Virus record (IMG/VR): IMGVR_UViG_3300016480_000130
Origin: a virus
Strand: one strand, 5' to 3'
DNA length: 33,527 nt
Shown: positions 1,125 through 16,016 of the stretch, in pieces
How the letters are laid out: every line of letters begins with the position of its first letter
Position numbering within the stretch: the stretch's first letter is position 1
The notes under the pieces: generated by a model
Told to the model about the DNA's origin: nothing
The model's input: the letters and a program-made list of their open reading frames with translations, nothing else
Database searches by the model: none
Position numbers and translations under genes: made by a program

Positions 1125-1649
1125 ATGAGTGATATAACAAAATGTTCAGGTTTTCTTTGCCCTTTAAAAGATAATTGTTATAGATATAAAGTAAAAGATG
1201 GTGTGCTACAAAGTTATTTTACAGAACAACCTTATAAAGATGGAAAATGTGAAATGTTTTTGGGTTTAAAGAAAATAACTTTATGCTTTTTTTTATTATT
1301 TTTAACATCTTGCGGAATAGTTAAAAAGAACAAAGAGCAAACTAGCATAGAAGATAAAAGCACTATTACGACTGATATAACTAGGTTTTCAGACACTTTT
1401 ATATTAGAGCCTATAGATTTATCAAAACCTATATTATTAGGAAAAGATACTATTTACAACACAAAAGTAGTGTATAATAAGACTAAAGAGATAGTAAAAG
1501 AAAAAGAAGCTAAAAATATAAACGTAGAGCAATCAAAAAAAGAAAAGCAAGTTGACTATTCAGAAACTATTAAAATAGTCGCAAATAGGCTCATACTTGC
1601 TTTTGTGGTCGTGGTACTTTTAGTTGTAGTAATTAAGAAATATTTATGA
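1125..1649 (+). CDS. spanin-like protein (lipoprotein signal plus C-terminal TM helix) with a Cys-rich N-terminal extension
   Basis: From internal Met44 (ATG 1254) the ORF reads MFLGLKKITLCFFLLFLTSC, with an L-T-S-C lipobox. The C-terminus is LILAFVVVVLLVVVIKKYL. The first 43 aa carry C7-x4-C12-x5-C18...C42. It lies just after holin-endolysin. Confidence 0.5.
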   Translation: MSDITKCSGFLCPLKDNCYRYKVKDGVLQSYFTEQPYKDGKCEMFLGLKKITLCFFLLFLTSCGIVKKNKEQTSIEDKSTITTDITRFSDTFILEPIDLSKPILLGKDTIYNTKVVYNKTKEIVKEKEAKNINVEQSKKEKQVDYSETIKIVANRLILAFVVVVLLVVVIKKYL

Positions 1650-1860
1650 TTTCTTGTTTTACTTCAGTCCAATATTCATAAAATTTAATACTTTGAACCA
1701 AATGTTCTTTTCTTGAATTTAAAATTTCATCAACTGCTATTAATGCGCTTTTTTTAGCTATTGAAGTACATAAAATTTCATTCCCGCAATCTGTATCTTC
1801 ATTCATTAATATCATTCTGAATGAATTTACTAAATCTTCAGCTTTTAATTTTGGTGTCAT
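1633..1860 (-). CDS. hypothetical protein (75 aa, acidic)
   Basis: Last ORF of a tightly packed leftward operon. Its start overlaps the upstream stop (ATGA). Confidence 0.5.
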   Translation of the reverse strand: MTPKLKAEDLVNSFRMILMNEDTDCGNEILCTSIAKKSALIAVDEILNSRKEHLVQSIKFYEYWTEVKQEIINIS

Positions 1861-2066
1861 AATCCTTTTTCTTTTTTAACGTTGTATAATCTGCTCTTTT
1901 TGTCATAAACTACATTTTCTTCAGGTATAATTTTAACTTCACTTATAAGTATCTTACAAGGTTCATTTAAGTACCAAATATAGTCAGGGTCTGTTTTTGA
2001 TATCATTCCTGCTTCGCAATACTCTGGTTTTATTCCAGATGGTTGAAAATAAACTGTTTTGTTCAT
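1857..2066 (-). CDS. hypothetical protein (69 aa)
   Basis: ORF in the leftward operon with ATGA overlaps at both ends. Its C-terminus KKEKGL is shared with the upstream ORF. Confidence 0.5.
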   Translation of the reverse strand: MNKTVYFQPSGIKPEYCEAGMISKTDPDYIWYLNEPCKILISEVKIIPEENVVYDKKSRLYNVKKEKGL

Positions 2067-2248
2067 AATCCTTTTTCTTTTTTAAAGATTTCTAATAGTT
2101 CTTTTGATGTTACTATATTTTCAGTAACATAGTTTAAACACCACTCTGCAAATTCAATAGCATATTCATCTGCTATTGTCATAAATGTTGCATAAGGGTC
2201 TTGTTCATCGTAATCCTTTATAATGTCTAATTTTTCTTTTAATGTCAT
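2063..2248 (-). CDS. hypothetical protein (61 aa, acidic)
   Basis: ORF in the leftward operon with ATGA-type overlaps. C-terminus KKEKGL. Confidence 0.5.
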   Translation of the reverse strand: MTLKEKLDIIKDYDEQDPYATFMTIADEYAIEFAEWCLNYVTENIVTSKELLEIFKKEKGL

Positions 2249-2454
2249 AATTCTATTTCTTTTAGTGTAGTAATATATTCAATCTCTCTTTTTAAATATT
2301 CCATAGCTTTTTTTAAATCTTCAAGCTCATTTTCTTTTTTTCCTGCTCTAGCAATATATTTTAATACATTGCCTCTATTGAAATTAAGATTATACATTTT
2401 GCAAAAATCTATAATATCTATATTTTTTTCGTTTTTATAATATTCAGGTTTCAT
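2245..2454 (-). CDS. DUF3310-like phage protein
   Basis: NVLKYIARAGKK....DLKKAMEYL resembles the conserved core of the DUF3310 family of small phage proteins. Confidence 0.55.
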   Translation of the reverse strand: MKPEYYKNEKNIDIIDFCKMYNLNFNRGNVLKYIARAGKKENELEDLKKAMEYLKREIEYITTLKEIEL

Positions 2455-2660
2455 TATTTTATAATTAAATGTATTTCACAATTATTTTCAATTCCTTTTA
2501 ACTCTTTAATGCCTAATTTTAAGGCATATTGATAAGCGTAAAATAAAGTCTTTTGGCTTTTAGTCTGTGCGTGTAACTTTTGAGGCGTTACATTCATCTT
2601 TTTAGCAAATTGATTATTGTTTAATCCTAAGCTATTAATTAAATTTTCTAGTGTATTCAT
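2454..2660 (-). CDS. helix-turn-helix DNA-binding protein (Cro/XRE-like)
   Basis: 68 aa. LNNNQFAKKMNVTPQKLHAQ has an HTH-like pattern. It is the first sizeable gene of the leftward small-gene operon. Confidence 0.55.
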   Translation of the reverse strand: MNTLENLINSLGLNNNQFAKKMNVTPQKLHAQTKSQKTLFYAYQYALKLGIKELKGIENNCEIHLIIK

Positions 2661-2743
2661 TTTTTAAAAGTTTCGTTATAGTATTGTTCGCCTAAAGTAA
2701 TTTTAATATTGTCGCTATATTGCATAACTTCAATTAATGACAT
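2657..2743 (-). CDS. possible 28-aa leader ORF (MSLIEVMQYSDNIKITLGEQYYNETFKK)
   Basis: ATG 2743-2741. The TGA stop overlaps the ATG of the HTH gene (ATGA). It is below the ORF-track size cut-off and there is no other support. Confidence 0.2.
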   Translation of the reverse strand: MSLIEVMQYSDNIKITLGEQYYNETFKK

Positions 2744-2768
2744 TTTATTGATTCTATCTTCATGTAAG

Positions 2769-2873
2769 TTTTGTTTTTAATAATCCGTGCCTGCGTATAA
2801 CACTGGTTTTGCAATAGCGGTTTTGAAACTTTGCACCGCATAAAAACCGCCATTGCAAAGCCGTTTAACGTTA
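2769..2873 (-). promoter_or_regulatory. GC-rich intergenic element A (box TAACGTTAAACGGCTTTGCA plus 16-bp hairpin)
   Basis: The box is at 2873-2854 on the minus strand, 21 nt after the methyltransferase stop. Stem 2809-2824 pairs with 2843-2858. The GGCACGGATTA block is at 2791-2781. Confidence 0.6.
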
Positions 2874-2894
2874 CCAGCAATGCCAGCGACCGTG

Positions 2895-3590
2895 CTAAAA
2901 CAACCGCAGTTGTGATTTAAAGTCATTAAAACGCTTTTCTTGTTTCTCATAATATTCTTGGTCTATTTCAAATCCTACAAAGTTAAACCCGCCTTTATAC
3001 GCTGCAATCCTACTGCTTCCACTCCCTAAATGAGTGTCTAAAATCAAATTGCCTTGCTCTAATTTTGCAAAGTTCAAACAGAAGTCATAAAGTTCAACAG
3101 GTTTTTGAGTTGGATGTATTTTTTCACATCCTATACTTGCCTTTGCTTTTGCTCTTGCCATTTCAAATACTCTCAATGATTTTTTAAATGAAGTCCAGCA
3201 AAGTTCGCCATCTGCTAAACTAAAATTCCTTTGTCCTTTATCCCAAAAAATCCAGCCTTGTGAGTTTGGTAATAAGTTTGCAAAATAATTTCCTCCCCAA
3301 ATAATTTGATTTTTAGATACTCGGAATAGTTCAGTAAAATATTCTTCATTTGGTATTGAACTATCCCAGTCCTTCCTGTCCCATTGCTTCCATCCGTTAT
3401 CAGCATTTCCAGCGTGGTTTTCTGCTCCTATTCCATAAGGCGGGTCAACTATTGCCAAATCAAAATGGTTATCGTTAAAGCGTTTTAATGCCGTTACACA
3501 ATCTTCCAAATAAACCTCCGGTGAAGGCACTGCTGGTAACACGTGTTTGGAGCAATGCGGGGATTTGTCTTTAATTTTAATATCTTGCAT
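2895..3590 (-). CDS. DNA methyltransferase, N6-adenine/N4-cytosine type (DPPY, beta-class motif order)
   Basis: The catalytic motif IVDPPYG is near the N-terminus and the SAM motif LDTHLGSGSS is near the C-terminus (IV before I). No adjacent endonuclease gene, so it is an orphan. Confidence 0.85.
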   Translation of the reverse strand: MQDIKIKDKSPHCSKHVLPAVPSPEVYLEDCVTALKRFNDNHFDLAIVDPPYGIGAENHAGNADNGWKQWDRKDWDSSIPNEEYFTELFRVSKNQIIWGGNYFANLLPNSQGWIFWDKGQRNFSLADGELCWTSFKKSLRVFEMARAKAKASIGCEKIHPTQKPVELYDFCLNFAKLEQGNLILDTHLGSGSSRIAAYKGGFNFVGFEIDQEYYEKQEKRFNDFKSQLRLF

Positions 3591-3662
3591 TTTTGTTACT
3601 ATTAGTTATTAATCGAAAAATGGTGCATTTTTGCCCGCACTGCACCAAGCACTCGGACGTTA
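3591..3662 (-). promoter_or_regulatory. intergenic element E (box TAACGTCCGAGTGCTTGGTG plus hairpin and T-tract)
   Basis: The box is at 3662-3643. The minus-strand stem GGTGCA (3646-3641) pairs with TGCACC (3627-3622) and is followed by ATTTTT. A TTAATAACTAATAG stretch precedes ATG 3590. Confidence 0.5.
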
Positions 3663-3665
3663 TGG

Positions 3666-3875
3666 TCAATGGCTACGTTTACGTTTTAATTGAACTTTTC
3701 TGTATATGTAGCTTATACTTTCGTAAACTACGCATCCCGAAGAAAGAAATGCAATCATTATTAAAGTCATATTAATTACTACTATTAAATTATCAATAAT
3801 TTGTCCAGTAATAACAATAATTATTAATAAACCACAAGCCGTAAACAACCAATTAGCAAATCTATCTATATTCAT
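3666..3875 (-). CDS. small membrane protein (two predicted TM helices)
   Basis: 69 aa. The hydrophobic stretches WLFTACGLLIIIVITGQII and VVINMTLIMIAFLSSGCVV are followed by a basic tail, KRKRSH. Confidence 0.5.
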   Translation of the reverse strand: MNIDRFANWLFTACGLLIIIVITGQIIDNLIVVINMTLIMIAFLSSGCVVYESISYIYRKVQLKRKRSH

Positions 3876-4033
3876 AATTTTTAGTTTTAAAACCCGCCAC
3901 TAACTATAACAAGTGTTTGACAAAAAAGCGGGTTCGGTTATTAATTTAATGTTTGTTTTCTATTTGCTACCATTTTGCTGGCGTCGGTAATATGGTTTTA
4001 TTTTCCGCTTCTTCGCCAAGCACATTAACGTTA
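3876..4033 (-). promoter_or_regulatory. intergenic element D (box TAACGTTAATGTGCTTGGCG plus hairpins)
   Basis: The box is at 4033-4014. Stem TGGCG/CGCCA, then stem AACCCGC/GCGGGTT (plus-strand coordinates 3891-3897 and 3928-3934), followed on the transcribed (minus) strand by TTTTAAAA before ATG 3875. Confidence 0.5.
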
Positions 4034-4041
4034 TACGCTAT

Positions 4042-4323
4042 TTATATTGGACGATGGAAATCAATGTTTATGAATATAAAATAAGCTATACGTATGCTTA
4101 TGTATTCAAGACCTTTTAGCTTTGAAACCCTCAAATAGAAAAATTCAACATTCTTATATTCTCCATATTGCTTTCTTACATCTTCTCTCCGTTTAATCTT
4201 ATATGGAATAATTGATAGATTTATGCTTTGTCTATCTTTTTCAAAATAAATTAAACGGCTTATAACAGCACCTACCCAAAAGCGGGGGTTCAGTGCTTTA
4301 ATAAAGTTGATTGCTCTGTTCAT
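4042..4323 (-). CDS. hypothetical protein (93 aa)
   Basis: ORF flanked by box/hairpin elements on both sides. Confidence 0.45.
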   Translation of the reverse strand: MNRAINFIKALNPRFWVGAVISRLIYFEKDRQSINLSIIPYKIKRREDVRKQYGEYKNVEFFYLRVSKLKGLEYISIRIAYFIFINIDFHRPI

Positions 4324-4388
4324 GTTTTTGTTGTAAAAATTAAAATTTCGTTTAAAAATCCCCGCCTTCGGGTAGCCGCAAAACGTTA
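4324..4388 (-). promoter_or_regulatory. intergenic element C (box TAACGTTTTGCGGCTACCCG plus short GC hairpin and T-tract)
   Basis: The box is at 4388-4369. The hairpin CCCG-AAGG-CGGG is followed by GATTTTT. Confidence 0.5.
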
Positions 4389-4398
4389 GCAGAAAGCA

Positions 4399-4680
4399 CT
4401 ACTGACCGTCTTCGATTGAAAGTTTAGCCAATATTGTATCTGCTGCTCTGATTGCCACGTCTGCAACAATATCACTTTGCATAAGATACTTTTCACCCTT
4501 GTACTCTTTCATCCATTCGGGGTTTGACAATAAACCTTGCATTGCTTTCGCTGTGAAATATTCACGTTTTGTCAATCCCATTTCAAAACCTGAAAAGTTT
4601 GACGTTTGACTTCCTCTTAAATTACCTTTTTCGTCTACTGAAACTTCGACTGGAAACGCTGGTTCATTTTTTGTTTTCAT
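4399..4680 (-). CDS. hypothetical phage protein (93 aa)
   Basis: The ORF has a LTKREYFTAKAMQGLLSN segment reminiscent of a widespread small phage protein of unknown function. It ends in TAG. Confidence 0.55.
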   Translation of the reverse strand: MKTKNEPAFPVEVSVDEKGNLRGSQTSNFSGFEMGLTKREYFTAKAMQGLLSNPEWMKEYKGEKYLMQSDIVADVAIRAADTILAKLSIEDGQ

Positions 4681-4803
4681 TTATCGTTATTATTAAAATT
4701 TTTACTAATTAACCCGTGCCATCTGCTAACAGCGGTTTTGTGCAAGCTGCCCGACCGCTCAATGCCAACGCTTCGCAGCCTGACACAAAGCCACAAAACG
4801 TTA
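4681..4803 (-). promoter_or_regulatory. GC-rich intergenic element B (box TAACGTTTTGTGGCTTTGTG plus composite hairpin)
   Basis: The box is at 4803-4784. Composite stem 4737-4750 pairs with 4775-4789. It shares the blocks AAAACCGCTGTTAGCA and GGCACGGGTTAAT with element A. Confidence 0.6.
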
Positions 4804-4811
4804 TGCTTAAT

Positions 4812-5000
4812 TTAAAGATATACTACATAGAAAATTTCTTTATAAACCTTTCTATATACAATAATTGGATTCCCTAAATTAACATATAACATAAGACAAC
4901 TTGAAAAAAATAAGTTACATAAAAACTCATTTCGTTTATAAAAACTACGCATAACAGCGTTTTTATTCAATTGTTGCTCTTGGTTTAATTTTTTTGTCAT
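4812..5000 (-). CDS. hypothetical protein (62 aa)
   Basis: ORF in the leftward cluster between elements F and B. Confidence 0.4.
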   Translation of the reverse strand: MTKKLNQEQQLNKNAVMRSFYKRNEFLCNLFFSSCLMLYVNLGNPIIVYRKVYKEIFYVVYL

Positions 5001-5077
5001 TGTGTACTTGTATTTTTTAGTAATTAATAAAAGTTAGTTTATGTCATTCCACACTGAAATAAACACGCAAACCGTTA
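5001..5077 (-). promoter_or_regulatory. intergenic element F (degenerate box TAACGGTTTGCGTGTTTATT)
   Basis: The box is at 5077-5058 and its TAA is the stop codon of the upstream gene. TTAATTACTAAAAAA precedes ATG 5000. No clear hairpin. Confidence 0.35.
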
Positions 5078-5302
5078 TGCAACAGTTAGCTCACGTTGTC
5101 CTAAAACGAAAACTAAATTTTGCAATTCGTGTAAATAATTGAAGTTCGTTAAGACTGTTTCTCCATCGCAAAAAAAGAATCCATCATAATCTTTTGCAGT
5201 TTGAACGCTATATCTGAAATTAGGTAACGTAGCTTCAAAAGTTTCATTTACTTCAACTATGAAAAACCCCATTTTTGTTAATACTTCTTTTGCGTTTATC
5301 AT
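5075..5302 (-). CDS. hypothetical protein (75 aa from Met30 of the tracked ORF)
   Basis: The tracked ORF 5075-5389 begins in a low-complexity K/I-rich translation of the AT-rich promoter region. The ATG at 5302 (MINAKEVL...) lies 16 nt downstream of a TATATTTG box. Confidence 0.5.
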   Translation of the reverse strand: MINAKEVLTKMGFFIVEVNETFEATLPNFRYSVQTAKDYDGFFFCDGETVLTNFNYLHELQNLVFVLGQRELTVA

Positions 5303-5317
5303 AATTTTTCTTTTTTG

Positions 5318-5325
5318 CAAATATA
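5318..5325 (-). promoter_or_regulatory. Bacteroidota-type -7 promoter box TATATTTG (leftward)
   Basis: The reverse complement of caaatata matches TAnnTTTG. It lies in the AT-rich divergent region at the head of the leftward cluster. Confidence 0.45.
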
Positions 5326-5515
5326 TAAAAATATTTTTTAAAATAAATTTTTTTTTTATTTTTTTTTTATCATTACTTTGCCTTATCAAAATAACAAATT
5401 ATGAAAACATTATTTTATTTAACACTCGCTACAATAGCAATGCACACAGAAAATAATATAGTTATGGTGACTATATTTATATTTTTAAGTTTAACAATTT
5501 ATAAAATGATTAAAT

Positions 5516-5734
5516 ATGAAAACACTTTGGAAAAGACTAAGTAAAGAAAATAGAAATAAATTAAAAGTTTCTGCTAAAATGTATCCTCACTCGATAGGTA
5601 AATTAATAAAAGCATTGAAAACTGAATATTCTTATAGTAGCTTAACTTTTGAGTGTATTGTTTGGCTAATGCAAGAAACAACAGGCGAGCAAACGACAAT
5701 AACTAACGTAGATAAATTGTTTAACGATAAATAA
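5516..5734 (+). CDS. hypothetical protein (72 aa)
   Basis: First tracked ORF of the rightward early cluster. Confidence 0.5.
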   Translation: MKTLWKRLSKENRNKLKVSAKMYPHSIGKLIKALKTEYSYSSLTFECIVWLMQETTGEQTTITNVDKLFNDK

Positions 5735-5740
5735 AAAAAT

Positions 5741-6184
5741 ATGAAATTAATATCAATGACAGATTTTGTTTTACAAGAACAAAAAGGAGGACAACAAGTA
5801 AATTGTATTACTAGTAATTTGCATCACAAATTAAGAAAAATAAAAAAATACGCTAACTTTCTAAAACAACCTTTAAAACTAGAAATGTTTGTTCCTTGTG
5901 ATGAAGATGGAAATAAATTACAAGAACCAGAAGAATTTAAAGAATGGATGAAATCAGACCATTACTTTAATGCTTCAGAAAATGTTACTCATCAATGTAG
6001 AATGTACAAAAAAGCAAAAGAAAAAGTTTTGTTTGACGGTTTTGATATTTACTCAAATGGAGATTTACACAATGCTTTTGTAACATTTGAAAGTAGTAGA
6101 TTAGAAATAATGAACGTTGAAAATTTAATAACTGACTTTCAGTATAGTTTCTATTTAACACCAAACGCAATTAAACAATTATAA
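5741..6184 (+). CDS. hypothetical protein (147 aa)
   Basis: ORF closely packed with its neighbours. Confidence 0.55.
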   Translation: MKLISMTDFVLQEQKGGQQVNCITSNLHHKLRKIKKYANFLKQPLKLEMFVPCDEDGNKLQEPEEFKEWMKSDHYFNASENVTHQCRMYKKAKEKVLFDGFDIYSNGDLHNAFVTFESSRLEIMNVENLITDFQYSFYLTPNAIKQL

Positions 6185-6186
6185 TT

Positions 6187-6342
6187 ATGAAGAAGTTTAA
6201 AATTTATTACTGGAAACACAAAAACGATGAATGCATCGATTGTGAAAGAATTGTAGAAGCTCATAACTTTGATATAGCTTATCAAGAATTTAGAAAAAAT
6301 AACCCTTTTGTTAAAATTAGAGAAATAAAAGAAATATTATGA
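6187..6342 (+). CDS. hypothetical small protein (51 aa, MKKFKIYYWKHKNDECIDCERIVEAH...)
   Basis: Not in the ORF track because of its size. It starts 3 nt after the previous stop, and its TGA overlaps the ATG of the next small ORF. Confidence 0.4.
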   Translation: MKKFKIYYWKHKNDECIDCERIVEAHNFDIAYQEFRKNNPFVKIREIKEIL

Positions 6343-6518
6343 AAATAGAATTAATAGCTGGTAAATGGCACGTAAACGGAAAATCATTCCAAGAGTTAAC
6401 TCCTAACGAAAGAATGATACTAGATAATTTTTTTGAAGATTATAAAAACGGGAAAGAATTAGCAAGTGAAATAGTGATTGATGAAAGTTTAAAACAAGTA
6501 TTAAAAGAATTAATATGA
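6339..6518 (+). CDS. hypothetical small protein (59 aa, MKIELIAGKWHVNGKSFQEL...)
   Basis: Not in the ORF track. ATGA overlaps at both ends (6339-6342 and 6515-6518) fill an otherwise unexplained 330-nt gap. Confidence 0.45.
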   Translation: MKIELIAGKWHVNGKSFQELTPNERMILDNFFEDYKNGKELASEIVIDESLKQVLKELI

Positions 6519-7000
6519 CTTTATTAGAAATTAAAAAGCTTTGGGGTATTGATATAACCGAAAAAAATAGAACTCAATTATATGTCTTTTTACGCTATTT
6601 GTACCTAGAGGAAAATTTAGACAAAATAGATTATATTATTGCTAGGGAGTTAAATTTAGAACGTTCAACTGTAAATCAAGCAAGGAATAATCCTGAACGA
6701 TTTAACAAAGGATTTGTGTATTTATTTCTAAAAGATTTATATTATAAAAGAGATAAAGATTTAATTAAAAAATATAACGATTTTATAAAAGAAAAAAAAT
6801 TAGAACAAAAATGTCTTTATAAATCAAGATATGAAGCTAGTATAAAAGAAATAAATAAATCAACTGCTAATTTTAAAAGAAAAGAAAATTTATTTTTTGT
6901 ACTTGACAAATTAAGAGGTAAAAAAACTTATTTAAACTACAAAGTTTTTAATACTTGGGATGATCACGACTGGAACGAATTTTATAGACTAATTAAATAA
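6515..7000 (+). CDS. hypothetical protein, possible HTH DNA-binding
   Basis: 161 aa. IIARELNLERSTVNQARNN looks like an HTH recognition segment. Confidence 0.4.
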   Translation: MTLLEIKKLWGIDITEKNRTQLYVFLRYLYLEENLDKIDYIIARELNLERSTVNQARNNPERFNKGFVYLFLKDLYYKRDKDLIKKYNDFIKEKKLEQKCLYKSRYEASIKEINKSTANFKRKENLFFVLDKLRGKKTYLNYKVFNTWDDHDWNEFYRLIK

Positions 7001-7002
7001 TT

Positions 7003-7557
7003 ATGAACACAGCAAACATATATTTACTGCAAAACGCAAAAGGGCAATATGTATCGTATAATAAAATACACGGTTATTCCTTTTGCTTTAAAATACACGA
7101 TGCTCAATACACACGTAAAAAAGAAGAAGCAGAAGCATCAAAGCCAAGAATTGAACAATTACTAAATATTAAACTTGAAATAGTAAAATCAACTGAAGAA
7201 GAACTTTTATTCTCTTACGGTTTAACAGCTACACACGCTGTAATTACAGGAAGTTATTTTATTGAGTTTTTAGAGCTTATAAATTATAATATACCTACTA
7301 TTTCACAAGTTAATAAAAATATTAAAAAACACCTTGTAAATGCTATTAATTCACTTAAACCAATTGATATAAAGTTTAAAGATTTTGAGAGCGTAAAAGA
7401 TGATCAGACTTATGAGGTTTATGGCTATTACCAAGAAATGATACACGAATTAGCTAAAATAGATTTATATCATTGTAATAACATAACTCAATTATTAAAA
7501 GCCTATCAAAAAAGCCCTAAGTCTTTGGAAGGAATAACTAAAAAAATATTGCAATGA
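7003..7557 (+). CDS. hypothetical protein (184 aa)
   Basis: ORF whose end overlaps the next start by 4 nt. Confidence 0.55.
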   Translation: MNTANIYLLQNAKGQYVSYNKIHGYSFCFKIHDAQYTRKKEEAEASKPRIEQLLNIKLEIVKSTEEELLFSYGLTATHAVITGSYFIEFLELINYNIPTISQVNKNIKKHLVNAINSLKPIDIKFKDFESVKDDQTYEVYGYYQEMIHELAKIDLYHCNNITQLLKAYQKSPKSLEGITKKILQ

Positions 7558-9561: not shown

Positions 9562-9590
9562 AAACCACCTTTTAATAAGGTGGTTTTTTT
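9562..9590 (+). terminator. intrinsic terminator
   Basis: AAACCACCTT-ttaat-AAGGTGGTTT followed by TTTT, 6 nt after the stop at 9556. Confidence 0.75.
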
Positions 9591-9860
9591 ATGGTTTAAA
9601 ATTTTAAACAGGTTTAAAAAATAAACACTTAAAAATCAATTAGTTAAATTGTTTTTTAAACTTTTAAACTGGTTTAAAGAAAAAAGTAATTTATAAAAAA
9701 AATAAAAAAAATAAAAAAAATGTTTTTTTCATTAAACTTGGTTTAAAAGTTTAAAATAAAAAGTTAAGTAATTGATTTTTAGTTATTTAGTATTTTTTTT
9801 TAGTTTAAAAAAAGTTTAAAAAAGTTTAAAATTTTAAACCTATATTTTTTTTAAACAATG
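9591..9860. repeat. origin-of-replication-like region (GTTTAAA/TTTAAAC iterons, phased A-tracts, 17-bp inverted repeat)
   Basis: More than 10 copies of GGTTTAAA/GTTTAAAA and the inverse TTTTAAAC. (A8T)x3 at 9695-9721 followed by T7. Inverted repeat 9631-9647 / 9764-9780. Non-coding and directly upstream of the primase gene. Confidence 0.55.
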
Positions 9861-9883: not shown

Positions 9884-9891
9884 TATATTTG
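9884..9891 (+). promoter_or_regulatory. Bacteroidota-type -7 promoter box TATATTTG
   Basis: Exact TAnnTTTG match, with GTTG 19 nt upstream (9861-9864) as a partial -33 element. It precedes the primase leader. Confidence 0.5.
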
Positions 9892-10007
9892 TACTCGTTG
9901 AAGCTCTACCAACAAGGAAAGTATAACGTTAATTATTTAACGTAACCGAGAAACCCTTAAAGATAGTAGAGCATCTTTAGGGGTTTTCTCATTTTAAAAA
10001 GGATCAT
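9892..10007 (+). promoter_or_regulatory. structured 5' leader of the primase gene (attenuator-like)
   Basis: Hairpin 9926-9932/9937-9943. An 11-bp stem 9954-9964/9973-9983 followed by TTTTCTCATTTT. GCTCTAC (9903-9909) is complementary to the loop sequence GTAGAGC (9966-9972). Confidence 0.5.
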
Positions 10008-12245
10008 ATGAATTTAGAAAAAGTAAGAAAGTTTTATGATTATTTTAGCTTAATAGCTGTGAATGATAATAAAAAACCAAATCATCTTTGGAAGTCTTGC
10101 CAAACAGAAAAGATGCCTTGGAATGAATTAGAAAATGAATTATCAAAAGTTTCTAATTTTGGAATCGTTACAGGTTTTGAGGATTTAGAGTGTATTGATA
10201 TTGACTTAAAAGTTTTTTCAACTGCTAAAGAACAAAAAGATTTCTTTGATGAATATATAGGTTATTTAAAAGATAATATTTTAGATTTTGAAAAAAAGAT
10301 AGTAGTATATAAAACTAAAAACGCTGGTTATCATTTGCTTTATAAATCAAAAAGAGTTCAGGGCAATTTAAAACTTGCTAAATTAAAAGGACATACTGAG
10401 GCTGTCATTGAAACTAGGGGAATAGGCGGTTATATTTTTGCATATCCTGAAAATAAAATCTCTAATTTAAGCTATTTTAATATACAATATATTTCTGATG
10501 ATGATAGAGATATTATTATGTCTTTTTCTAAAATGTATAATCATGTTGAAGCTATACCAGAAACACCTAAGAAACAAAAAAATACAAATTTTGATGGAAT
10601 AACTCCTTGGGATGATTATAACGAAAAAACAAATATTTTTGATGTAATAGACTCTGACTTCACTATTGTAGGTAATCATACAAAAAGATATGTTATTAAA
10701 AGACACGGGTCTAAAAGCCCTCATAGTGGATATATTTTTAAAGATACTGGTTTTATGTATCTATTTAGTACAGGTACGATATACCCACATGAAAAACTTA
10801 TAACTCCTTTTTTAGCTTATGCTTATAAATACCACAATGGTAATTTATCAGAAGCCACAAAAGAAATATATAAATTAGGTTTTGGGTCAAGAATTGTCGT
10901 AAAAGAAAACGAGCCTGAAGAAAAAATAATATTAAAAAAAGATGATTTAGTTTTTCCTTTGGAAATATATCCTAAGTCAGTGCAAAATTATATTATTGAA
11001 TGTTCTCAAACATTAGATAGTTCAATTGATTATATGGGTTGTTCTTTGTTATGGTTAATATCCCTATCAATAGGTAATTCAATGGTTATTGAAGTCAAAA
11101 GAGGATGGGTTGAAAATTGTGTTGTTTGGGTTGCAATTGTTGGGAAGGCTGGTATTGGTAAAACACCATCAATCTCTAATATTATTTTTCCATTAGAAAA
11201 AATAAATAATAGAGAAATATCTAATTACATTAAAGAATACGAAAAATACGAATATTATAACTCTTTAAGTAAAAAAGAACAAGAGGAATTTCCTGAAGTT
11301 CAAAAGCCTAAAAAAAGCCAATTTATGGCTAATGACATTACAGTTGAAGCTTTAGTCGACTTACATCAGCAGTCTGATAACGCTGTAGGTGTTTTCAAGG
11401 ATGAACTTGCTGGATGGTTTAAAGACATGAATAAGTATAAACAAGGATCTGATTTAGAATTTTGGCTGTCTACTTGGAGCGGAAAAGCTGTAAATTTAAA
11501 TAGATTAACTAGAGCTGGGTCTTTTGTTGCAAAGCCTTTTTTTCCTGTTCTTGGTGGTATTCAACCAAGTATTTTTAATTCTTTTTATACTGAAGAAAAT
11601 AAAGATAATGGTTTTATTGACAGAATGCTTTTGTCTTATCCTGAGTTACAAGTTGAAAAATATAATGAATCAGAGATGAATTATGAGACTATACAATGGT
11701 ATAGTGATACTATTGTGGCTTTCTTTGAACGTATAAAAACTAATTTAGTAAAAAGAGATGATAATCAAAAAATAGATCCTATTGTTTTAAAATTTTCTGA
11801 AGAAGCAAAAAAAGAATGGATTAGGATTTACAATGATATAACAATAATTCAAAATGATGATTCTGAAAACGAATATATGAAATCAATGTTGCCTAAACAA
11901 AAATCATATATTCCTAGATTTGCTCTTTTAATTCACGTATTTAATGCTATTGGTGAGCCTAGTTATAATTTACAAGAAATTTCAAAAGATAGTATTTTGA
12001 AAGCTGAAAAACTATCTAAATATTTTATTGCCATGGCAAAGAAAATAAAAATAGATAGCGTTGAAGTCTCAGAAATAAAACAAATTTTAAAAGACCAAAA
12101 AGGTAAGACAACTAAAGAAAAATTTGAGCAACTTTATTTAGCTAATAAAAACTTAAATAAAAAAGAAGTCTCAGAACAATTGGGAGTTTCTCTACAAATG
12201 ATTTATAAATACATAAAACAAATTGAAAATGGAACTGAAATATAA
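10008..12245 (+). CDS. bifunctional primase-polymerase (prim-pol) fused to a DUF3987-type helicase/NTPase, with C-terminal HTH
   Basis: The N-terminus has ECIDIDLK (DxD), NAGYHLLYK and ETRGIGGYIFAYP, as in prim-pol domains. The central region has the Walker A motif GKAGIGKTPS. The C-terminal segment is EVSEQLGVSLQMIYKYIK. Confidence 0.8.
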   Translation: MNLEKVRKFYDYFSLIAVNDNKKPNHLWKSCQTEKMPWNELENELSKVSNFGIVTGFEDLECIDIDLKVFSTAKEQKDFFDEYIGYLKDNILDFEKKIVVYKTKNAGYHLLYKSKRVQGNLKLAKLKGHTEAVIETRGIGGYIFAYPENKISNLSYFNIQYISDDDRDIIMSFSKMYNHVEAIPETPKKQKNTNFDGITPWDDYNEKTNIFDVIDSDFTIVGNHTKRYVIKRHGSKSPHSGYIFKDTGFMYLFSTGTIYPHEKLITPFLAYAYKYHNGNLSEATKEIYKLGFGSRIVVKENEPEEKIILKKDDLVFPLEIYPKSVQNYIIECSQTLDSSIDYMGCSLLWLISLSIGNSMVIEVKRGWVENCVVWVAIVGKAGIGKTPSISNIIFPLEKINNREISNYIKEYEKYEYYNSLSKKEQEEFPEVQKPKKSQFMANDITVEALVDLHQQSDNAVGVFKDELAGWFKDMNKYKQGSDLEFWLSTWSGKAVNLNRLTRAGSFVAKPFFPVLGGIQPSIFNSFYTEENKDNGFIDRMLLSYPELQVEKYNESEMNYETIQWYSDTIVAFFERIKTNLVKRDDNQKIDPIVLKFSEEAKKEWIRIYNDITIIQNDDSENEYMKSMLPKQKSYIPRFALLIHVFNAIGEPSYNLQEISKDSILKAEKLSKYFIAMAKKIKIDSVEVSEIKQILKDQKGKTTKEKFEQLYLANKNLNKKEVSEQLGVSLQMIYKYIKQIENGTEI

Positions 12246-13167
12246 TTATTTATATAATAGACATAATCAAGTTGTTTTTGTTGAAAATGCAATTAAAGAT
12301 GATTATAAAATTTCATTAAAAAGTGATTTAGATTATACTTTTGTAGAGCCTTACAGCAGAAAAGATGGCACTATTGTAAGCGGACATTTTAAATTAAAAT
12401 CAGACAATCCTTTTGCATCCATAGGTAGTGTAGGCATAAATCCTGAAAGTATAGAACATATAAATGCTAAATTAGAAATAGTTTATAATAAAAAATATTA
12501 TGACACTATTTTTAATAAATGGATTGTTTTTGATAACGTAATTGAAGAACAAAAACAAGATGATAAAATACCAGATTTGTCTTGTTATGTAGATGATAAA
12601 TTAGTTTGTTTAATCGAAATTTATCACACTAATAAAAAAAATGAAATAGATATTGAAAAATTAAAATTAATAGGGGTTCCTGTTATAGAATTAGATACTT
12701 ATGGAAACACTAAACACCTTGTTTTACCAAAAATACTCGAATCTAACAAAAGAGAATATACAGAAATTAAAACAAGAATCGAAAACCTTAGAAGCGAATA
12801 TTCAAAACTTGCCATTGAGCTACATCCAGATGGAGAAAGAAAAATTAAAAAGTTTACTGAATGGTTATTTAATAGAAAAAGAAGAGAATTTAAAAGCTTT
12901 AGCCATATTTCAAGAGAACGAAAAGAATTACGAGAAGAGGATGCAATTAATAAAGATATTAAAAGAATTAAAAATGAAATTGAAAAAGCTGATTATAGAG
13001 TTGGAAAACTTGAGCAAGAAATTGAAAGAATTGAAAGCAGTATTAAGCAAAGAAGAAACTCTTTTAATGAAATTGCAAAACAAAGCAAAATCGAATGGTT
13101 TAGAAATAAATGGATGACATACGAACCACAAAACATAATTGAAGAGATTAAATATTGGATACAATGA
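12223..13167 (+). CDS. hypothetical protein: possible PD-(D/E)XK/CoiA-like nuclease domain plus C-terminal coiled coil
   Basis: IPDLSCYVDDKLVCLIEIYHTNKK resembles a restriction-endonuclease-like core. The C-terminal ~120 aa are heptad-like and K/E-rich. Located between the primase and helicase genes. Confidence 0.35.
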   Translation: MKMELKYNYLYNRHNQVVFVENAIKDDYKISLKSDLDYTFVEPYSRKDGTIVSGHFKLKSDNPFASIGSVGINPESIEHINAKLEIVYNKKYYDTIFNKWIVFDNVIEEQKQDDKIPDLSCYVDDKLVCLIEIYHTNKKNEIDIEKLKLIGVPVIELDTYGNTKHLVLPKILESNKREYTEIKTRIENLRSEYSKLAIELHPDGERKIKKFTEWLFNRKRREFKSFSHISRERKELREEDAINKDIKRIKNEIEKADYRVGKLEQEIERIESSIKQRRNSFNEIAKQSKIEWFRNKWMTYEPQNIIEEIKYWIQ

Positions 13168-14444
13168 AATTAAGAGATTATCAAGAAAGACTTTCAAGCG
13201 ATGCGGTAGAAATATTGCATCGTAAAAAGATAGTTTACTTAGCAATGGAAGTTCGCTGCGGTAAGACTGTAACAGCTTTAGAAACGTGTAAAAAATACAA
13301 AGCTAATAAAGTTCTATTTATAACAAAGAAAAAAGCCATTTCTTCAATTGAATCAGATTATATTAACTTTGGATATTCTTTTAAATTAGTGATCATAAAT
13401 GATGAATCGTTACACAAAATAACGGATACTGACTTTGATATTGTAATTCACGATGAACACCACCGTTTCGGAGCTTTTCCAAAACCAAATGCAACAGCTG
13501 TTTTATTTAAAAAGAACTTCGGACATTTACCAATGATTTTTTTGAGTGGTACACCAACACCTGAAAGCCATTCCCAATGGTACCACCAGTTTTGGGTATC
13601 TAATCACAGCCCTTTTAATGATTATAAAAACTTTTATAAATGGGCAAACGAATATGTAGACATCGTTCAAAAAAACTTAGGATATGCAAAAGTAAATGAT
13701 TACTCAAATGCACGTAAAAAAGACTTTTGGCATAGAATTAGATATTATATTATTTCTTTTACACAGCAGCAGGCTGGGTTTACTACTTCGGTTAATGAAA
13801 TGGTTTTAGAGTGTGAAATGAAGCCTATTACTTATGGTATAATACGCAAGTTGCATAAAGGTTTAGTCGTTAAAGGTAAGTCAGGGAAAGAAATAATAGC
13901 TGACACAGGAGTTAAATTGCAACAAAAAACGCATCAATTATTTAGCGGTACAATTAAATTTGAAGACGGTTCTTTTGCTATTATTGACAACTCAAAGGCT
14001 GAGTTTATAAAAGAAAAGTTCAAAGATTATAAAATTGGAATATTTTATAAATTTGTGGCTGAGTTAGAAATGCTAAAGCAAACATTTGGACAAAATTTGA
14101 CCACAGATTTAGATGAGTTTAATGCAACGGATAAAAATATAGCTTTGCAAATTCAAGCAGGCAGAGAAGGAATTAGTTTATCAAAAGCTGATAGCCTTGT
14201 ATTTATGAATATTGATTTTAGTGCTGTTAGTTATTTTCAGGCTAGAGATAGACTAACAACGATGCAAAGAAAAGAGAATACTATTTTTTGGGTTTTTGCC
14301 AAAAATGGTATAGAAGAAAAAATTTATAAAACAGTTCAATCAAAAACAGATTATACTAATGGCATCTTTAAAAAAGACTTTGGAATCAAAAATTCAATCC
14401 AAAATAATAAAGAAACTCGAAGCAAAAGGTTATTACGTAGTTAA
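13155..14444 (+). CDS. DEXH-box (SNF2/SF2-like) DNA helicase
   Basis: Walker A EVRCGKT, motif II VIHDEHHRF and motif III LSGTP, with C-terminal helicase-like motifs. Confidence 0.75.
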   Translation: MDTMKLRDYQERLSSDAVEILHRKKIVYLAMEVRCGKTVTALETCKKYKANKVLFITKKKAISSIESDYINFGYSFKLVIINDESLHKITDTDFDIVIHDEHHRFGAFPKPNATAVLFKKNFGHLPMIFLSGTPTPESHSQWYHQFWVSNHSPFNDYKNFYKWANEYVDIVQKNLGYAKVNDYSNARKKDFWHRIRYYIISFTQQQAGFTTSVNEMVLECEMKPITYGIIRKLHKGLVVKGKSGKEIIADTGVKLQQKTHQLFSGTIKFEDGSFAIIDNSKAEFIKEKFKDYKIGIFYKFVAELEMLKQTFGQNLTTDLDEFNATDKNIALQIQAGREGISLSKADSLVFMNIDFSAVSYFQARDRLTTMQRKENTIFWVFAKNGIEEKIYKTVQSKTDYTNGIFKKDFGIKNSIQNNKETRSKRLLRS

Positions 14445-14676
14445 ATTAATAAAAACAAATAAAAATGGTGTTTGTGATTTAATTGCTGTTAAAGAAAATG
14501 AAACTATATTCATAGAAGTAAAAAGACCAAACGGCATATTAAGTGAGTTGCAGAAAGTTAGAATTAATGAGTTAAGAAGTAGAAATATAAATGTTAAAAT
14601 ATGGCAAGATTACGACCAGGAGTTTCAAGAATCGAAAACGGATTTGAAATCCCAACAGGAGCATTTGAATTTTTAA
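14359..14676 (+). CDS. VRR-NUC domain nuclease
   Basis: GVCDLIAV....IFIEVKRPNG.LSELQ matches the PD-(D/E)XK core of VRR-NUC. It overlaps the helicase 3' end by 86 nt. Confidence 0.7.
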   Translation: MASLKKTLESKIQSKIIKKLEAKGYYVVKLIKTNKNGVCDLIAVKENETIFIEVKRPNGILSELQKVRINELRSRNINVKIWQDYDQEFQESKTDLKSQQEHLNF

Positions 14677-14813
14677 GCAAGTCAGGACGAAAATGTTATC
14701 TCTCAGGAGTTAAAAAAATAAATAACAACTTTGTAGCTGTTATAAGATATATAGATGATGGTACTTTTGTTGAAGTTGATTATAAAAAAATCGAAAATAA
14801 ACTTCCTGTTTAA
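14601..14813 (+). CDS. hypothetical protein (70 aa)
   Basis: The ORF has only one possible ATG and overlaps the VRR-NUC 3' end by 76 nt. Confidence 0.4.
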   Translation: MARLRPGVSRIENGFEIPTGAFEFLSKSGRKCYLSGVKKINNNFVAVIRYIDDGTFVEVDYKKIENKLPV

Positions 14814-14821
14814 TTTTTTTA

Positions 14822-14829
14822 TATATTTG
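14822..14829 (+). promoter_or_regulatory. Bacteroidota-type -7 promoter box TATATTTG
   Basis: Exact TAnnTTTG match in the 124-nt gap before the sigma-factor gene. It is followed by a leader with AACGTT (14885-14890) and the hairpin CCGCTT/AAGCGG (14906-14911/14925-14930). Confidence 0.45.
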
Positions 14830-14937
14830 TATCAATAACTTTTTTGGATTGAGGTGTCCTCGGTCGGAGTTAGTTAAAAACTAAAACGTTCTTAAAATAT
14901 TTTTTCCGCTTTTTTGTTAGTTTTAAGCGGTTCTTTT

Positions 14938-15429
14938 ATGCTAGAAAGATTATATAAATACCATAATGAATTAATTGATTTAGCTGTTGTTTTTAGCAAG
15001 AAATATGCTGAGGATATAATTCAGGACGTTTATATAAAATTAAGCCTTTACGCTAAAGAAGATAAACTATTTATAAATGATAAACTAAACAAGCATTATT
15101 TATTTATAATTATAAGAAATGTTTATATTACAAATTATCATAAAAAAAACCATACTGAAGATATAACCAATTTTGAAATTGAGTACAATGATTTTAATGA
15201 ATTAGAAGAGATAGACTGGTTTAACTTTATGACTAAATGCAAAGCTGAGGTAGATAGCTGGGATATTTACGATAAAAAATTATTTAGCCTTTATAGAGAT
15301 TCAGGAATGAGTATGCAACAAATTTCAAACGAAACTAAAATAAGTAAAACTAGTATATTTCATTCATTAAAAGAACATAAAAGTAAATTAAAACAATTAT
15401 TTCAAAAAGATTATAATGACATTAGATAA
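14938..15429 (+). CDS. ECF-like sigma-70 family RNA polymerase sigma factor
   Basis: Taken from the first ATG; the track start at 14914 is TTG. Region 2-like AEDIIQDVYIKL and YLFIIIRNVYITNYHKK. Region 4-like HTH SGMSMQQISNETKISKTSIFHSLKEHKSKL. Confidence 0.6.
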   Translation: MLERLYKYHNELIDLAVVFSKKYAEDIIQDVYIKLSLYAKEDKLFINDKLNKHYLFIIIRNVYITNYHKKNHTEDITNFEIEYNDFNELEEIDWFNFMTKCKAEVDSWDIYDKKLFSLYRDSGMSMQQISNETKISKTSIFHSLKEHKSKLKQLFQKDYNDIR

Positions 15430-15996: not shown

Positions 15997-16016
15997 ATAA
16001 CTTATTTTTACTGATT

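Follow-up and report, generated by a model that had tools for sequence, protein, structure and literature searches.

The six box-and-hairpin units that separate the genes of the leftward operon in this viral DNA are, with high probability, attC-type structure-specific recombination sites, which together with the intervening genes make up an integrase-less cassette array (CALIN) in an early operon. The window is the whole stretch of DNA that was analyzed (33,527 nucleotides), and all positions are given on it. This reading builds on what was observed: the structure and covariation of the units, their homology to integrase-linked sites, the complementarity found between cassette ends, and a shuffling of whole cassettes whose junctions lie in the box.

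Six Inverted Repeats in the Leftward Operon

The initial annotation placed six boxes on the minus strand, each 0–25 nt past a stop codon, and all six are borne out at its positions; its statement that the segments have no conserved reading frame in common also holds. The "box plus hairpin" units it described are real, but only their 5′ half had been caught. Each TAACG box is paired with a TGTTA 76–127 nt downstream (6/6 window copies), and the spans from TAACG to TGTTA on the minus strand (5077–4952, 4803–4727, 4388–4263, 4033–3907, 3662–3537, and 2873–2798) are imperfect inverted repeats of 76–127 nt, in which the conserved structure is a long stem between the two boxes. The local stems proposed earlier stand for the copies at 2873 and 4803 and fall for the remaining copies; GGTGCA/TGCACC, CCCG/CGGG, and TGGCG/CGCCA were rejected as conserved pairing, which is instead the long-range stem. 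MFE folding recovers this stem in 5/6 window copies, and the copy at 5077 is decayed, with a fold no better than that of shuffles (z = 0). In the copies at 5077, 4388, and 3662, the ATG of the next gene lies within the loop, and the ORF continues through the 3′ arm.

Two covariance models, R1 and R2, were built only from sites adjoining an Xer/IntI-like integrase in Bacteroidota chromosomes and are phage-free; R2 comprises 17 integrase-linked sites from metagenome and MAG contigs, with phage sequence excluded. Searching both strands of the 33.5-kb window with R2 gave matches at exactly six places (E = 8.6e-8 to 2.8e-22), and R1 and R2 each match the six sites and nothing else in the window (33–94 bits). 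The pattern TAACGT-N5-KGCT has just five exact occurrences in the window, all of them within 2859–4803 on the minus strand, but it was picked post hoc from data already seen, so the independent covariance-model test weighs more. The AACGTT copies at 9924 and 14885, in the primase and sigma-factor leaders, had been put forward as related elements; neither has a TGTTA partner or a model match, each is preceded by a TAnnTTTG promoter-like box, and they are chance matches. Over positions 1500–6000, Rfam 15 returned no family, only a chance 5.8S rRNA match (E = 0.92). The features of the array are given below, where Q and P are the boxes at the start and the end of a cassette body and pairing is counted as Watson–Crick plus G·T pairs.

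5318..5325, minus: Bacteroidetes-type −7 box TATATTTG, the sole intergenic TAnnTTTG on the minus strand in 2600–5450
4952..5077, minus: putative attC-type site 1, 126 nt, TAACGG...GCTGTTA, stem decayed; loop with ATG 5000 of the next ORF and an A-rich leader; R2 match 5089–4940, 41.1 bits, 6e-9
4804..4951, minus: cassette 1 body; Q 4951–4940 TGCGTAGTTTTT, P 4815–4804 TTAAATTAAGCA, complementary at 8 + 1 of 12
4812–5000, minus: cassette 1 ORF, 62 aa
4727..4803, minus: putative attC-type site 2, 77 nt, compact hairpin; next ATG 4680, 47 nt past TGTTA; R2 match 4815–4715, 8.6e-8; R1 match 44.9 bits, 1.7e-11
4389..4726, minus: cassette 2 body; Q GCAGATGGCACG, P AGTGCTTTCTGC, 9 + 1 of 12
4399–4680, minus: cassette 2 ORF, 93 aa, no Pfam match
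4263..4388, minus: putative attC-type site 3, 126 nt; long-range stem GCGGCTACCCGAAGGCGGGG / CCCCCGCTTTTGGGTAGGTGC, −39 kcal/mol; loop with leader and ATG 4323, ORF continuing across the 3′ arm; R2 match 4400–4251, 94 bits, 2.8e-22
4034..4262, minus: cassette 3 body; Q TAAGCCGTTTAA, P ATAAATAGCGTA, 8 + 1 of 12
4042–4323, minus: cassette 3 ORF, 93 aa, beginning in site 3, no Pfam match
3907..4033, minus: putative attC-type site 4, 127 nt, z = −3.4; loop with a 10-codon dead ORF only, the real gene start (3875) lying beyond the site; R2 match 4045–3895, 53.9 bits
3663..3906, minus: cassette 4 body; Q TAGTTAGTGGCG, P AGCCATTGACCA, 8 + 2 of 12
3666–3875, minus: cassette 4 ORF, 69 aa, hydrophobic
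3537..3662, minus: putative attC-type site 5, 126 nt; loop with ATG 3590 of the DNA methyltransferase; R2 match 3674–3525, 55 bits
2874..3536, minus: cassette 5 body; Q CCAGCAGTGCCT, P TGGCATTGCTGG, 10 + 1 of 12
2895–3590, minus: cassette 5 ORF, N6/N4-type DNA methyltransferase
2798..2873, minus: putative attC-type site 6, 76 nt, compact hairpin, last site of the array; R2 match 2885–2786, 42.1 bits; R1 match 33.3 bits

A distal end of the last cassette, downstream of site 6, was looked for and not found. TAnnTTTG is the −7 box consensus of Bacteroidetes, and the box at 5318..5325 is, judged by its sequence, likely to be the single promoter of the leftward operon, reading through the array. 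Site 1 has 89.7% identity to the site preceding hemulen gp006, with differing gene bodies, and the 62-aa ORF that starts in its loop is probably a remnant: residues 1–16 match the hemulen C5-methyltransferase, and the remainder is unrelated. Positions 2870–3566 have 90.5% identity to the hemulen gp005 cassette. Site 5 and its counterpart in the orthologous hemulen cassette have diverged in their arms; within each copy, the two arms are still complementary. The loop of site 3 is homologous to loops in 126-nt chromosomal sites.

Structure and Covariation of the Site Family

The stem of about 24 bp contains conserved G·T wobbles, one conserved mismatch, and 5′-arm bulges, and its arms vary yet stay complementary. 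Among 110 unique family members, four to six pair types occur at each stem position, and the folding energy is −26.7 kcal/mol with a site's own arms versus −12.4 kcal/mol when arms are swapped between sites. A G·T pair is present at 3′-arm position 19 in 101/110 members, and position 10 is an unpaired A. The integrase-linked alignment has a covariation score of 0.355 versus 0.158 for shuffled alignments; 0/500 shuffles reach the observed score. The coding strand forms 2415 pairs (287 of them G·T) versus 1917 (108 G·T) for its complement.

TAACG and TGTTA are invariant in 39/39 copies from the window and three phages, a set that had itself been selected on these boxes, and they are invariant also across the 34 integrase-linked sites. 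Position 6 of the box is T in 34/39 copies, the rest of the box varies, and the 3–4 nt outside TAAC do not strictly follow the RYYY of the attC end boxes (R″ RYYYAAC, R′ GTTRRRY; e.g., GCA-TAAC). The TAACG strand carries, on its 5′ arm beside the crossover box, a 3–4-nt bulge, a 1 × 1 C·A mismatch, and a 1-nt bulge. Site length ranges from 46 to 215 nt across the family, with a variable terminal loop that encloses a start codon in 29/54 long elements and often the first 12–20 codons.

Cassette Ends and the Link to a Recombinase

Each TGTTA is followed by ∼11 nt that can pair with the 11 nt ahead of the next TAACG. Over 111 cassettes, 9.99 of 12 positions are paired between the Q box of one site and the P box of the following site, against 6.19 for the Q and P boxes of the same site and 6.24 for random pairings; each of the five window cassettes pairs at 9–11 of 12. 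Such complementarity is what marks the split site of an integron cassette.

The enzyme beside the Bacteroidota chromosomal arrays is a 275–280-aa Xer/IntI-like tyrosine recombinase, which public sources label XerD or plain "integrase." It aligns end to end with XerA, has no counterpart of IntI4 residues ∼181–242 and no IntI-specific insertion of ∼42 aa, and scores 209 on TIGR02249, under the cutoff of 265. In 80 metagenome loci anchored on the integrase of chromosomal locus L033, 51/51 site matches are opposite the integrase strand and nearly all are downstream; L033 also has an attI-like end, P-TAAC/tatc, adjoining the integrase. A 224-kb chromosomal contig carries five sites beside the integrase, each directly 3′ of a gene or gene group. 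No tyrosine recombinase or integrase was found in the window or in related complete phage genomes, and no cassette bodies are common to the sampled chromosomal and phage pools. All 155 orientable phage cassettes have the ORF sense on the TAACG (bottom-type) strand, with 15 more unclear, and the sole two antisense cases in that count come from L033; the integrase-linked arrays have the canonical orientation (8 antisense vs 1 sense).

Because phage ORFs lie on the folding strand, the mRNA carries a stable hairpin ahead of its gene, and an RNA-level role could also be selected. The hairpins would then be punctuation in the mRNA, as RNase III-type sites, 5′ stabilizers, or translation insulators, and shuffling a by-product of recombination between repeats. 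The sense orientation in 155/155 cassettes, the better folding of the sense strand with G·U-compatible wobbles, and the start codons in the loops of long elements agree with this, and the stems of at least 24 bp with internal loops resemble the RNase III sites of T7, where irregular hairpins roughly two helical turns long, interrupted by internal loops, mark the cistron boundaries of an early polycistronic transcript. Unlike the T7 sites, however, the units in chromosomal arrays are antisense to genes, so that the mRNAs there bear the weak complement, which locates the conserved function in the DNA. Complementary P and Q boxes stand on either side of complete translated genes, as expected of a split cassette site; where the ATG lies within a stem, cleavage of both its strands would part the start codon from its ORF; no Rfam family covers the sites; and the partner is a DNA recombinase rather than an RNase, a tight link for which RNA punctuation does not account. 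We therefore consider it unlikely as the main role. RNA processing or stability, one of four options in the initial annotation, may be a secondary effect, but it leaves the cassette-end complementarity and the integrase link unexplained.

Exchange of Whole Cassettes among Phages

Homology blocks in seven phages start at the T of TAACG, with 25/29 element-near ends at 0 to −3; the other end lies 4–16 nt into the next box, and just three ends fall at TGTTA. Among pairs that have the same gene body, 59 share the upstream hairpin but differ in the downstream one, and 2 show the opposite pattern. The cassette strings of related phages show whole units of hairpin plus downstream gene inserted, lost, and re-ordered, near-identical phages differ by whole cassettes, and the junctions between related phages fall inside TAACG. 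The shuffling could be historical, or it could be short-homology recombination at the conserved box. Copies are always in co-oriented arrays with one gene in between. R1 and R2 match 96 sites in other phage loci, and cultured Flavobacterium phages have arrays of 6–16 sites in the early operon, with DNA methyltransferases and small early genes.

Breakpoints in TAACG, the movement of hairpin-plus-gene units, and the homology to integrase-linked sites show that another of the four options, a recombination linker for gene shuffling, was essentially right, although the attC/integron type of the site had gone unrecognized. Repeated boundary stem-loops in a variable accessory region, with related phages differing by whole-gene modules, are also known from T4-type phages, as PeSLs (promoter-early stem-loops; PMC2839356, PMC4122927). 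By that analogy, each unit would combine a terminator with a promoter and turn a small gene into its own transcription unit, and homologous recombination would do the shuffling, as in T4-type hyperplastic regions; units do stand at every gene boundary, and the junctions of close relatives are at the repeats. PeSLs are composite promoter–terminator motifs thought to work by homologous recombination, whereas the units here have neither consensus: TAnnTTTG is found in 0/6 window elements and 6/110 family members (6.8 ± 2.6 expected), and no U-tract follows the main stem, findings that likewise lend no support to the terminator–promoter "moron" cassette suggested earlier. The breakpoints, moreover, are concentrated in a 5-nt box despite longer conserved stretches at the 3′ end, and the split-site signature and the homology to recombinase-linked sites are not PeSL features. 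A PeSL-like regulatory cassette is very improbable on this evidence.

We find it equally hard to credit a nonautonomous transposable element (a MITE or an IS200/IS605-type PATE) whose hairpin ends would be the substrate of a transposase. Such an element would explain imperfect palindromes with conserved ends, strand-specific folding, and many copies in phages and Bacteroidota genomes, but the mobile unit here is the hairpin with its downstream gene and not the hairpin by itself, the copies invariably form arrays of a single orientation in which one gene separates neighboring sites, the enzyme found with them is the Xer/IntI-like tyrosine recombinase and not a transposase, target-site duplications are absent, and every cassette has inverted P/Q halves of its own. 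An operator at which a phage HTH protein reads the palindromic AACGTT core, also listed initially along with a small HTH-like protein encoded nearby, finds no support and is scarcely credible: TAACG alone is invariant, the enrichment of AACGTT in the window is slight (20 vs 11.2 expected; 1/100 shuffles reaches 20), the conserved partner is a TGTTA 76–127 nt off with covarying arms, and the family spans unrelated phages and bacterial chromosomes without a common regulator.

Comparison with Integron and Xer Sites

The attC-type reading draws on a series of likenesses to integron attC sites and CALINs. Both are imperfect inverted repeats that end in TAAC and GTTA, with arms that are variable in sequence but complementary, a variable terminal loop (46–215 nt per site here, canonically 57–141 nt), and strand-specific folding; both form co-oriented promoterless arrays with mostly one gene per unit, each cassette begins with a sequence that can pair with the distal end of its own site, and whole cassettes are gained, lost, and re-ordered. 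The crossover in the AAC box of the TAACG...TGTTA strand reads as in the bottom strand of attC_aadA7 (PMC9892861, Table S3). CALINs, including ones with methyltransferase cassettes, are reported in virulent phages. We find AAC/GTT ends, covarying arms, a split site, a one-gene mobile unit, and homology to integrase-linked sites.

The differences are as consistent. The phage ORFs are on the folding ("bottom") strand, whereas the canonical ORF is on the top strand with attC after it, and start codons with the first 12–20 codons are often in the loop. The paired end box is ∼16 bp with conserved G·T instead of 7 bp, the unpaired spacer is 3–4 nt instead of 0–1 nt, and the linked recombinase is without the IntI-specific insertion. 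Bulged bases are on the arm of the crossover box and not on the opposite arm; attC_aadA7 has an extra G and T on the 3′ arm of its TAACG-type strand (PMC9892861, Table S3), and the extra bases here are on the 5′ arm, so the geometry is mirrored. The central spacer with extrahelical bases on the R″–L″ arm of the bottom strand, which directs strand choice in attC, was not found, the phage arrays have no ORF on the top strand, nor does the window contain the adjacent intI with an IntI-specific domain that defines a complete integron. The pdif/Xer modules of Acinetobacter plasmids are likewise small gene modules with Xer-type recombinase sites and no dedicated integrase in the element, but their sites are 28-bp, double-stranded, and of alternating orientation, in contrast to single-strand hairpins of 46–215 nt in one orientation.

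Proposed Mechanism

From these observations we infer an acting enzyme, a cleaved strand, a circular intermediate, and present activity in this Flavobacterium phage. A cassette is laid out as TAA/CG, 5′ arm, loop, 3′ arm, TGTTA, Q box, gene, and P box, and on its gene-coding strand the arms fold into the ∼24-bp stem. In the circularized cassette, the P box would pair with the cassette's own Q box, making the stem longer by 11 bp. When the TAACG strand becomes single-stranded, a host-encoded Xer/IntI-like recombinase could exchange strands within the TAACG box, so that whole cassettes would be excised, inserted, and re-ordered. One putative promoter (∼5325) would transcribe the array, each cassette supplying an A-rich leader and ATG just past its hairpin or in the loop.

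CALINs are known to occur in phages (PMC9892861). P12002L_attC1 from a Polaribacter phage, flagged in 2023 (PMC9892861), belongs to the present site family by model match. Of six sites tested, it was the only one without verified IntI1 attC × attI1 recombinants (PMC9892861); it is the only family member to have been tested experimentally, and the enzyme used was IntI1, not a Bacteroidota enzyme. The 2023 screen covered 10,705 phage genomes; it does not list the Flavobacterium phages of the present analysis, and one of its tools predicted one site of the family (PMC9892861). We found no description of the family, its arrays, or its geometry in the literature. Our results suggest that a large variant of site and integrase in Bacteroidota escapes standard integron finders. 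More tentatively, and with slightly more doubt than confidence, we propose that phages of flavobacteria and other Bacteroidota take part in a distinct integron-like system, with a mirrored attC marked by G·T wobbles, a very abundant Xer-like integrase without the IntI insertion (annotated as XerD), and a separate phage pool of "inverted" cassettes (anti-restriction methyltransferases and small early genes) that lie on the recombinogenic strand and start in the attC loop. In such a system, a virulent phage with no integrase of its own could renew its counter-defense arsenal one cassette at a time via a host enzyme.

Implications

Integrons have been known chiefly as platforms on which bacteria collect antibiotic-resistance cassettes and, more recently, cassettes for anti-phage defense. 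Here the same cassette logic is seen on the phage side, as arrays in early operons. The mirrored geometry, together with an integrase that is without the IntI domain for extrahelical bases, amounts to a natural experiment on how strand choice is encoded. If true, the cassette reading would explain, by a concrete mechanism open to testing, why accessory and counter-defense genes of phages turn over so fast.

Six paired-box sites in the leftward gene cluster

The six-site feature is real and highly non-random. The six minus-strand boxes of the initial annotation were confirmed where it had placed them, each 0-25 nt 3' of a stop codon in a run of six leftward genes, and each of these TAACG boxes has a partner, an invariant TGTTA 76-127 nt downstream. 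In the six window sites, the ~25 nt following TAACG are complementary to the ~25 nt preceding TGTTA, and RNA minimum-free-energy folding recovers these stems in five copies, with z from -1.8 to -3.4; the sixth, copy 5077, has a decayed stem by the same analysis.

Spans of the attC-type sites in the window (TAACG...TGTTA pairs)
5077-4952, minus strand
4803-4727, minus strand
4388-4263, minus strand
4033-3907, minus strand
3662-3537, minus strand
2873-2798, minus strand

The sites fall into two size classes, 76-77 nt and 126-127 nt, and the loop of the long class can carry the A-rich leader of the gene that follows together with its ATG and opening 12-20 codons, as seen at 5000, 4323, and 3590. 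Models built from integrase-linked sites alone match the six sites with 33-94 bits and match nothing else in the window, while an Rfam scan of 1500-6000 at E ≤ 1 returned nothing relevant. The box taken as a simple motif was rejected: its counts in the window give a weak signal (TAACGTT, 14 vs 6.9 expected; AACGTT, 20 vs 11.2 expected), and the signal is the two-box structure, not the hexamer. Relatives keep the long-range stems but not the short hairpins originally drawn in four of the six copies, and the AACGTT cores at 9924 and 14885, once counted as extra copies, lack a partner box and are not members.

We note that the 62-aa ORF at 4812-5000 (minus strand) matches the N-terminus of the hemulen C5-methyltransferase gp006 over its first 16 residues (MTKKLNQEQQLNK.AV), that its remainder is unrelated to gp006 and of low complexity, and that the stem of site 1, which lies upstream of the ORF, is decayed; ORF and site 1 are probably a degenerating cassette.

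Architecture and distribution of the site family

The window belongs to a Flavobacterium phage that is no more than a distant relative of the Baltic Flavobacterium phages of Nilsson et al. 2020, matches of ~90% being limited to the methyltransferase and one repeat. The Baltic phages hold 9-15 copies each by pattern scan, or 14-16 by covariance model R2, all on the coding strand of the leftward early cluster; the repeat is not mentioned in the paper describing them (Nilsson et al. 2020). Strict-pattern matches occur in 23 IMG/VR contigs and 12 genome contigs, again as co-oriented arrays, and the genome contigs are mostly labelled Bacteroidota (Runella, Pedobacter, Chryseobacterium, Kaistella, Flavobacterium, Chitinophagaceae). 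The architecture is constant across 110 unique copies.

Stem architecture (positions numbered along the 3' arm, starting from the end of TGTTA)
1-5: box helix TAACG/TGTTA, last pair G.T
Between 5 and 6, 5' side only: bulge of 3-4 nt
6-9: 4 base pairs, covarying
10: unpaired A, conserved, opposite C
11-18: helix of 8 base pairs, broken by a 5'-side bulge of 1 nt
19: G.T, near-invariant (101/110)
20-25: ~6 further base pairs

Over the 110 unique copies, folding with the site's own arms yields -26.7 kcal/mol vs -12.4 kcal/mol when arms are swapped between sites. The coding strand forms 2415 pairs, 287 of them G.T, vs 1917 on the complement, 108 of them G.T. One site of filifjonk9-1 (L003, 6691-6563) is a hybrid that combines a 5' arm of the 'GGCTTTAATACAGTTGCGG' type with a 3' arm of another type, common to site 3214; it pairs poorly (-16.5 kcal/mol) and suggests occasional exchange inside the loop.

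Cassette logic

Breakpoints, linkage, and the split-site signature, tested independently, agree on a cassette logic, in which Q denotes the 12 nt after TGTTA and P the 12 nt before the next TAACG. Homology blocks between seven phages that are close relatives start at the T of TAACG and stop 4-16 nt into the next TAACG box; of ~70 block ends located near an element, only 3 fall on the TGTTA side. For gene bodies that recur in two settings, 59 pairs share the upstream hairpin but differ in the downstream one, and 2 pairs show the reverse; the unit is therefore a hairpin plus its downstream gene. Complementarity of Q to the next P reaches 9.99/12, vs 6.19 to the adjacent P and 6.24 to random P boxes, and position 7 of this pairing is a conserved G.T. 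Because Q_k pairs with P_k+1, a circularised cassette would carry one long perfect hairpin split by the crossover, which is the classic integron-cassette signature. An outer helix formed by ATTG upstream of a hairpin and CAGT downstream of it was rejected, since Q_k matches P_k no better than chance and pairs with P_k+1 across the gene. No P box matching Q6, at the distal end of the last cassette, was found downstream of 2786.

From one of the seven phages to another, whole units of the cassette string are inserted, lost, or re-ordered.

Cassette strings of three of the phages
hemulen: EABNCLODFGHIJRS
stinky: EABNCDFGHIJRS
hattifnatt: EABMCLKaD

A swap of the methyltransferase hairpin between window and hemulen was also considered and discarded, as blastn homology extends into the 3' arm and loop; the two are one site that has diverged, with arms still complementary. 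The rightward window gene 5741-6184 (plus strand) and hemulen gp013 (L002, 6389-6567), a leftward cassette gene, are homologous (73% for the DNA), so this gene is an array member in hemulen but lies beyond the array and on the opposite strand in the window. Comparison by tblastx (17 x 109) found no cassette bodies common to chromosomal and phage arrays.

Link to a tyrosine recombinase

In L033, a genome match, the array lies beside a gene for a 278-aa tyrosine recombinase with Phage_int_SAM_4 and Phage_integrase domains, and the array end adjoining this gene is a P-TAAC|tatc junction. The best NCBIfam matches of the protein are 'XerA/integron integrase' (216 bits, cut-off 220) and TIGR02249 'integron integrase' (209 bits, cut-off 265). 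It aligns end to end with XerA and in two pieces with VchIntIA, without residues ~181-242, the IntI-specific insertion. At E ≤ 1e-40 the family counts at least 7,988 members, named in their sources 'XerD' or simply 'integrase'. In 80 metagenome loci fetched with this recombinase as query, all 51 significant model matches are on the strand opposite the integrase, almost all downstream of it. A 224-kb Bacteroidota contig (L128) has co-oriented genes after its integrase, including a PemK toxin pair and a T9SS-sorting-domain protein, with opposite-strand sites after each gene or gene group. The PemK-type toxin-antitoxin pair (15113-15672) fills one cassette of this chromosomal array; toxin-antitoxin cassettes also occur in large proteobacterial chromosomal integrons.

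Integrase-bearing metagenome contigs (L125-L127 and many of L045-L124) often stop 100-900 nt past the integrase. Array sizes are probably underestimated, because assemblies are expected to break in repeated site arrays. In contig L047, sites flank the integrase gene on both sides (3165-7070 and 10234-16825), all on the strand opposite to it, and the integrase seems to lie inside one array or between two.

Pfam and tblastn searches found no integrase in the window, hemulen, filifjonk, lillamy, or the Polaribacter phage P12002L. An uncultured IMG/VR viral contig (L016) encodes a homolog of the array-linked integrase (10104-10898, 36% identity) directly adjoining two sites on the same strand, and may be a phage with its own recombinase.

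Inverted orientation of the phage cassettes

Genes of the chromosomal arrays run antisense to the TAACG strand, which is the canonical integron arrangement; the bottom strand of attC_aadA7 likewise reads ..TAACG...TGTTA.. (PMC9892861 Table S3). In every phage array, by contrast, genes are sense on the TAACG strand (155/155 orientable cassettes), and TAA|CG-hairpin-TGTTA-Q-body-P is therefore a canonical cassette read on the bottom strand, its ORF being inverted. Chromosomal and phage sites of the 126-nt class have homologous loops (e.g., ...CACTGAACC preceding the 3' arm), which phages have turned into leaders with start codons; an ATG lies inside the loop in 29/54 long sites and 1/42 short sites.

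A possible reason for the inversion is that the coding strand of the leftward genes would be the lagging-strand template, most often single-stranded, if replication both starts at 9590-9850 and moves leftward. This intergenic segment, AT-rich and 300 bp long, precedes the primase gene and has iteron-like direct and inverted repeats (TGGTTTAAAANTTTTAAAC, at least 3 copies); it is a plausible origin of replication.

Proposed mechanism and expression

The analysis establishes how the sites fold and covary, their homology, the split-site signature, and shuffling at the level of cassettes. We propose that a host integrase of the L033/L128 family would act on the folded TAACG strand and cleave between TAA and CG, with circular cassettes being excised and inserted and the exchange resolved, by analogy with integrons, through replication. 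G.T wobbles, which turn into C.A mismatches on the complement, could plausibly serve to mark the strand and would stand in for the extrahelical bases read by IntI via the insertion missing from the linked integrase.

The hairpins may additionally act at the RNA level, although such a role does not explain the main evidence. The terminator-promoter cassette, an option listed initially, is not supported, scans having found a promoter box or terminator-like U-tract in no window element. Cassette genes would be expressed by read-through from a single TAnnTTTG promoter at 5325. TAnnTTTG is the consensus of the Bacteroidetes -7 box, and TATATTTG, which matches it, has copies in front of three genes or operons.

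Copies of this TAnnTTTG match
5325-5318, minus strand: in front of the leftward operon
9885-9892, plus strand: in front of the primase leader
14822-14829, plus strand: in front of the sigma-factor-like gene

Small unrelated leader hairpins come after the primase and sigma-factor copies and are the source of the supposed extra cassettes.

Relation to reported elements

CALINs, arrays without an integrase, were reported in phages in 2023 by Qi, Ghaly, Tetu and Gillings (PMC9892861), whose phage list does not include the Baltic Flavobacterium phages. Their P12002L 'attC1', between two methyltransferase genes, was predicted by one tool only and was the sole site among six without verified IntI1 recombinants (PMC9892861); we find it to be a member of the window site family. 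Bacteroidota integrons have also been reported (PMC8618304). In an incomplete library, we found no description of the repeat in Flavobacterium or Cellulophaga phages, of Bacteroidota integron-like elements of this site type, or of the mirrored site geometry, the linked integrase, and the inverted phage cassettes. The feature is best explained as a phage-borne attC-type cassette array of a Bacteroidota integron-like family.
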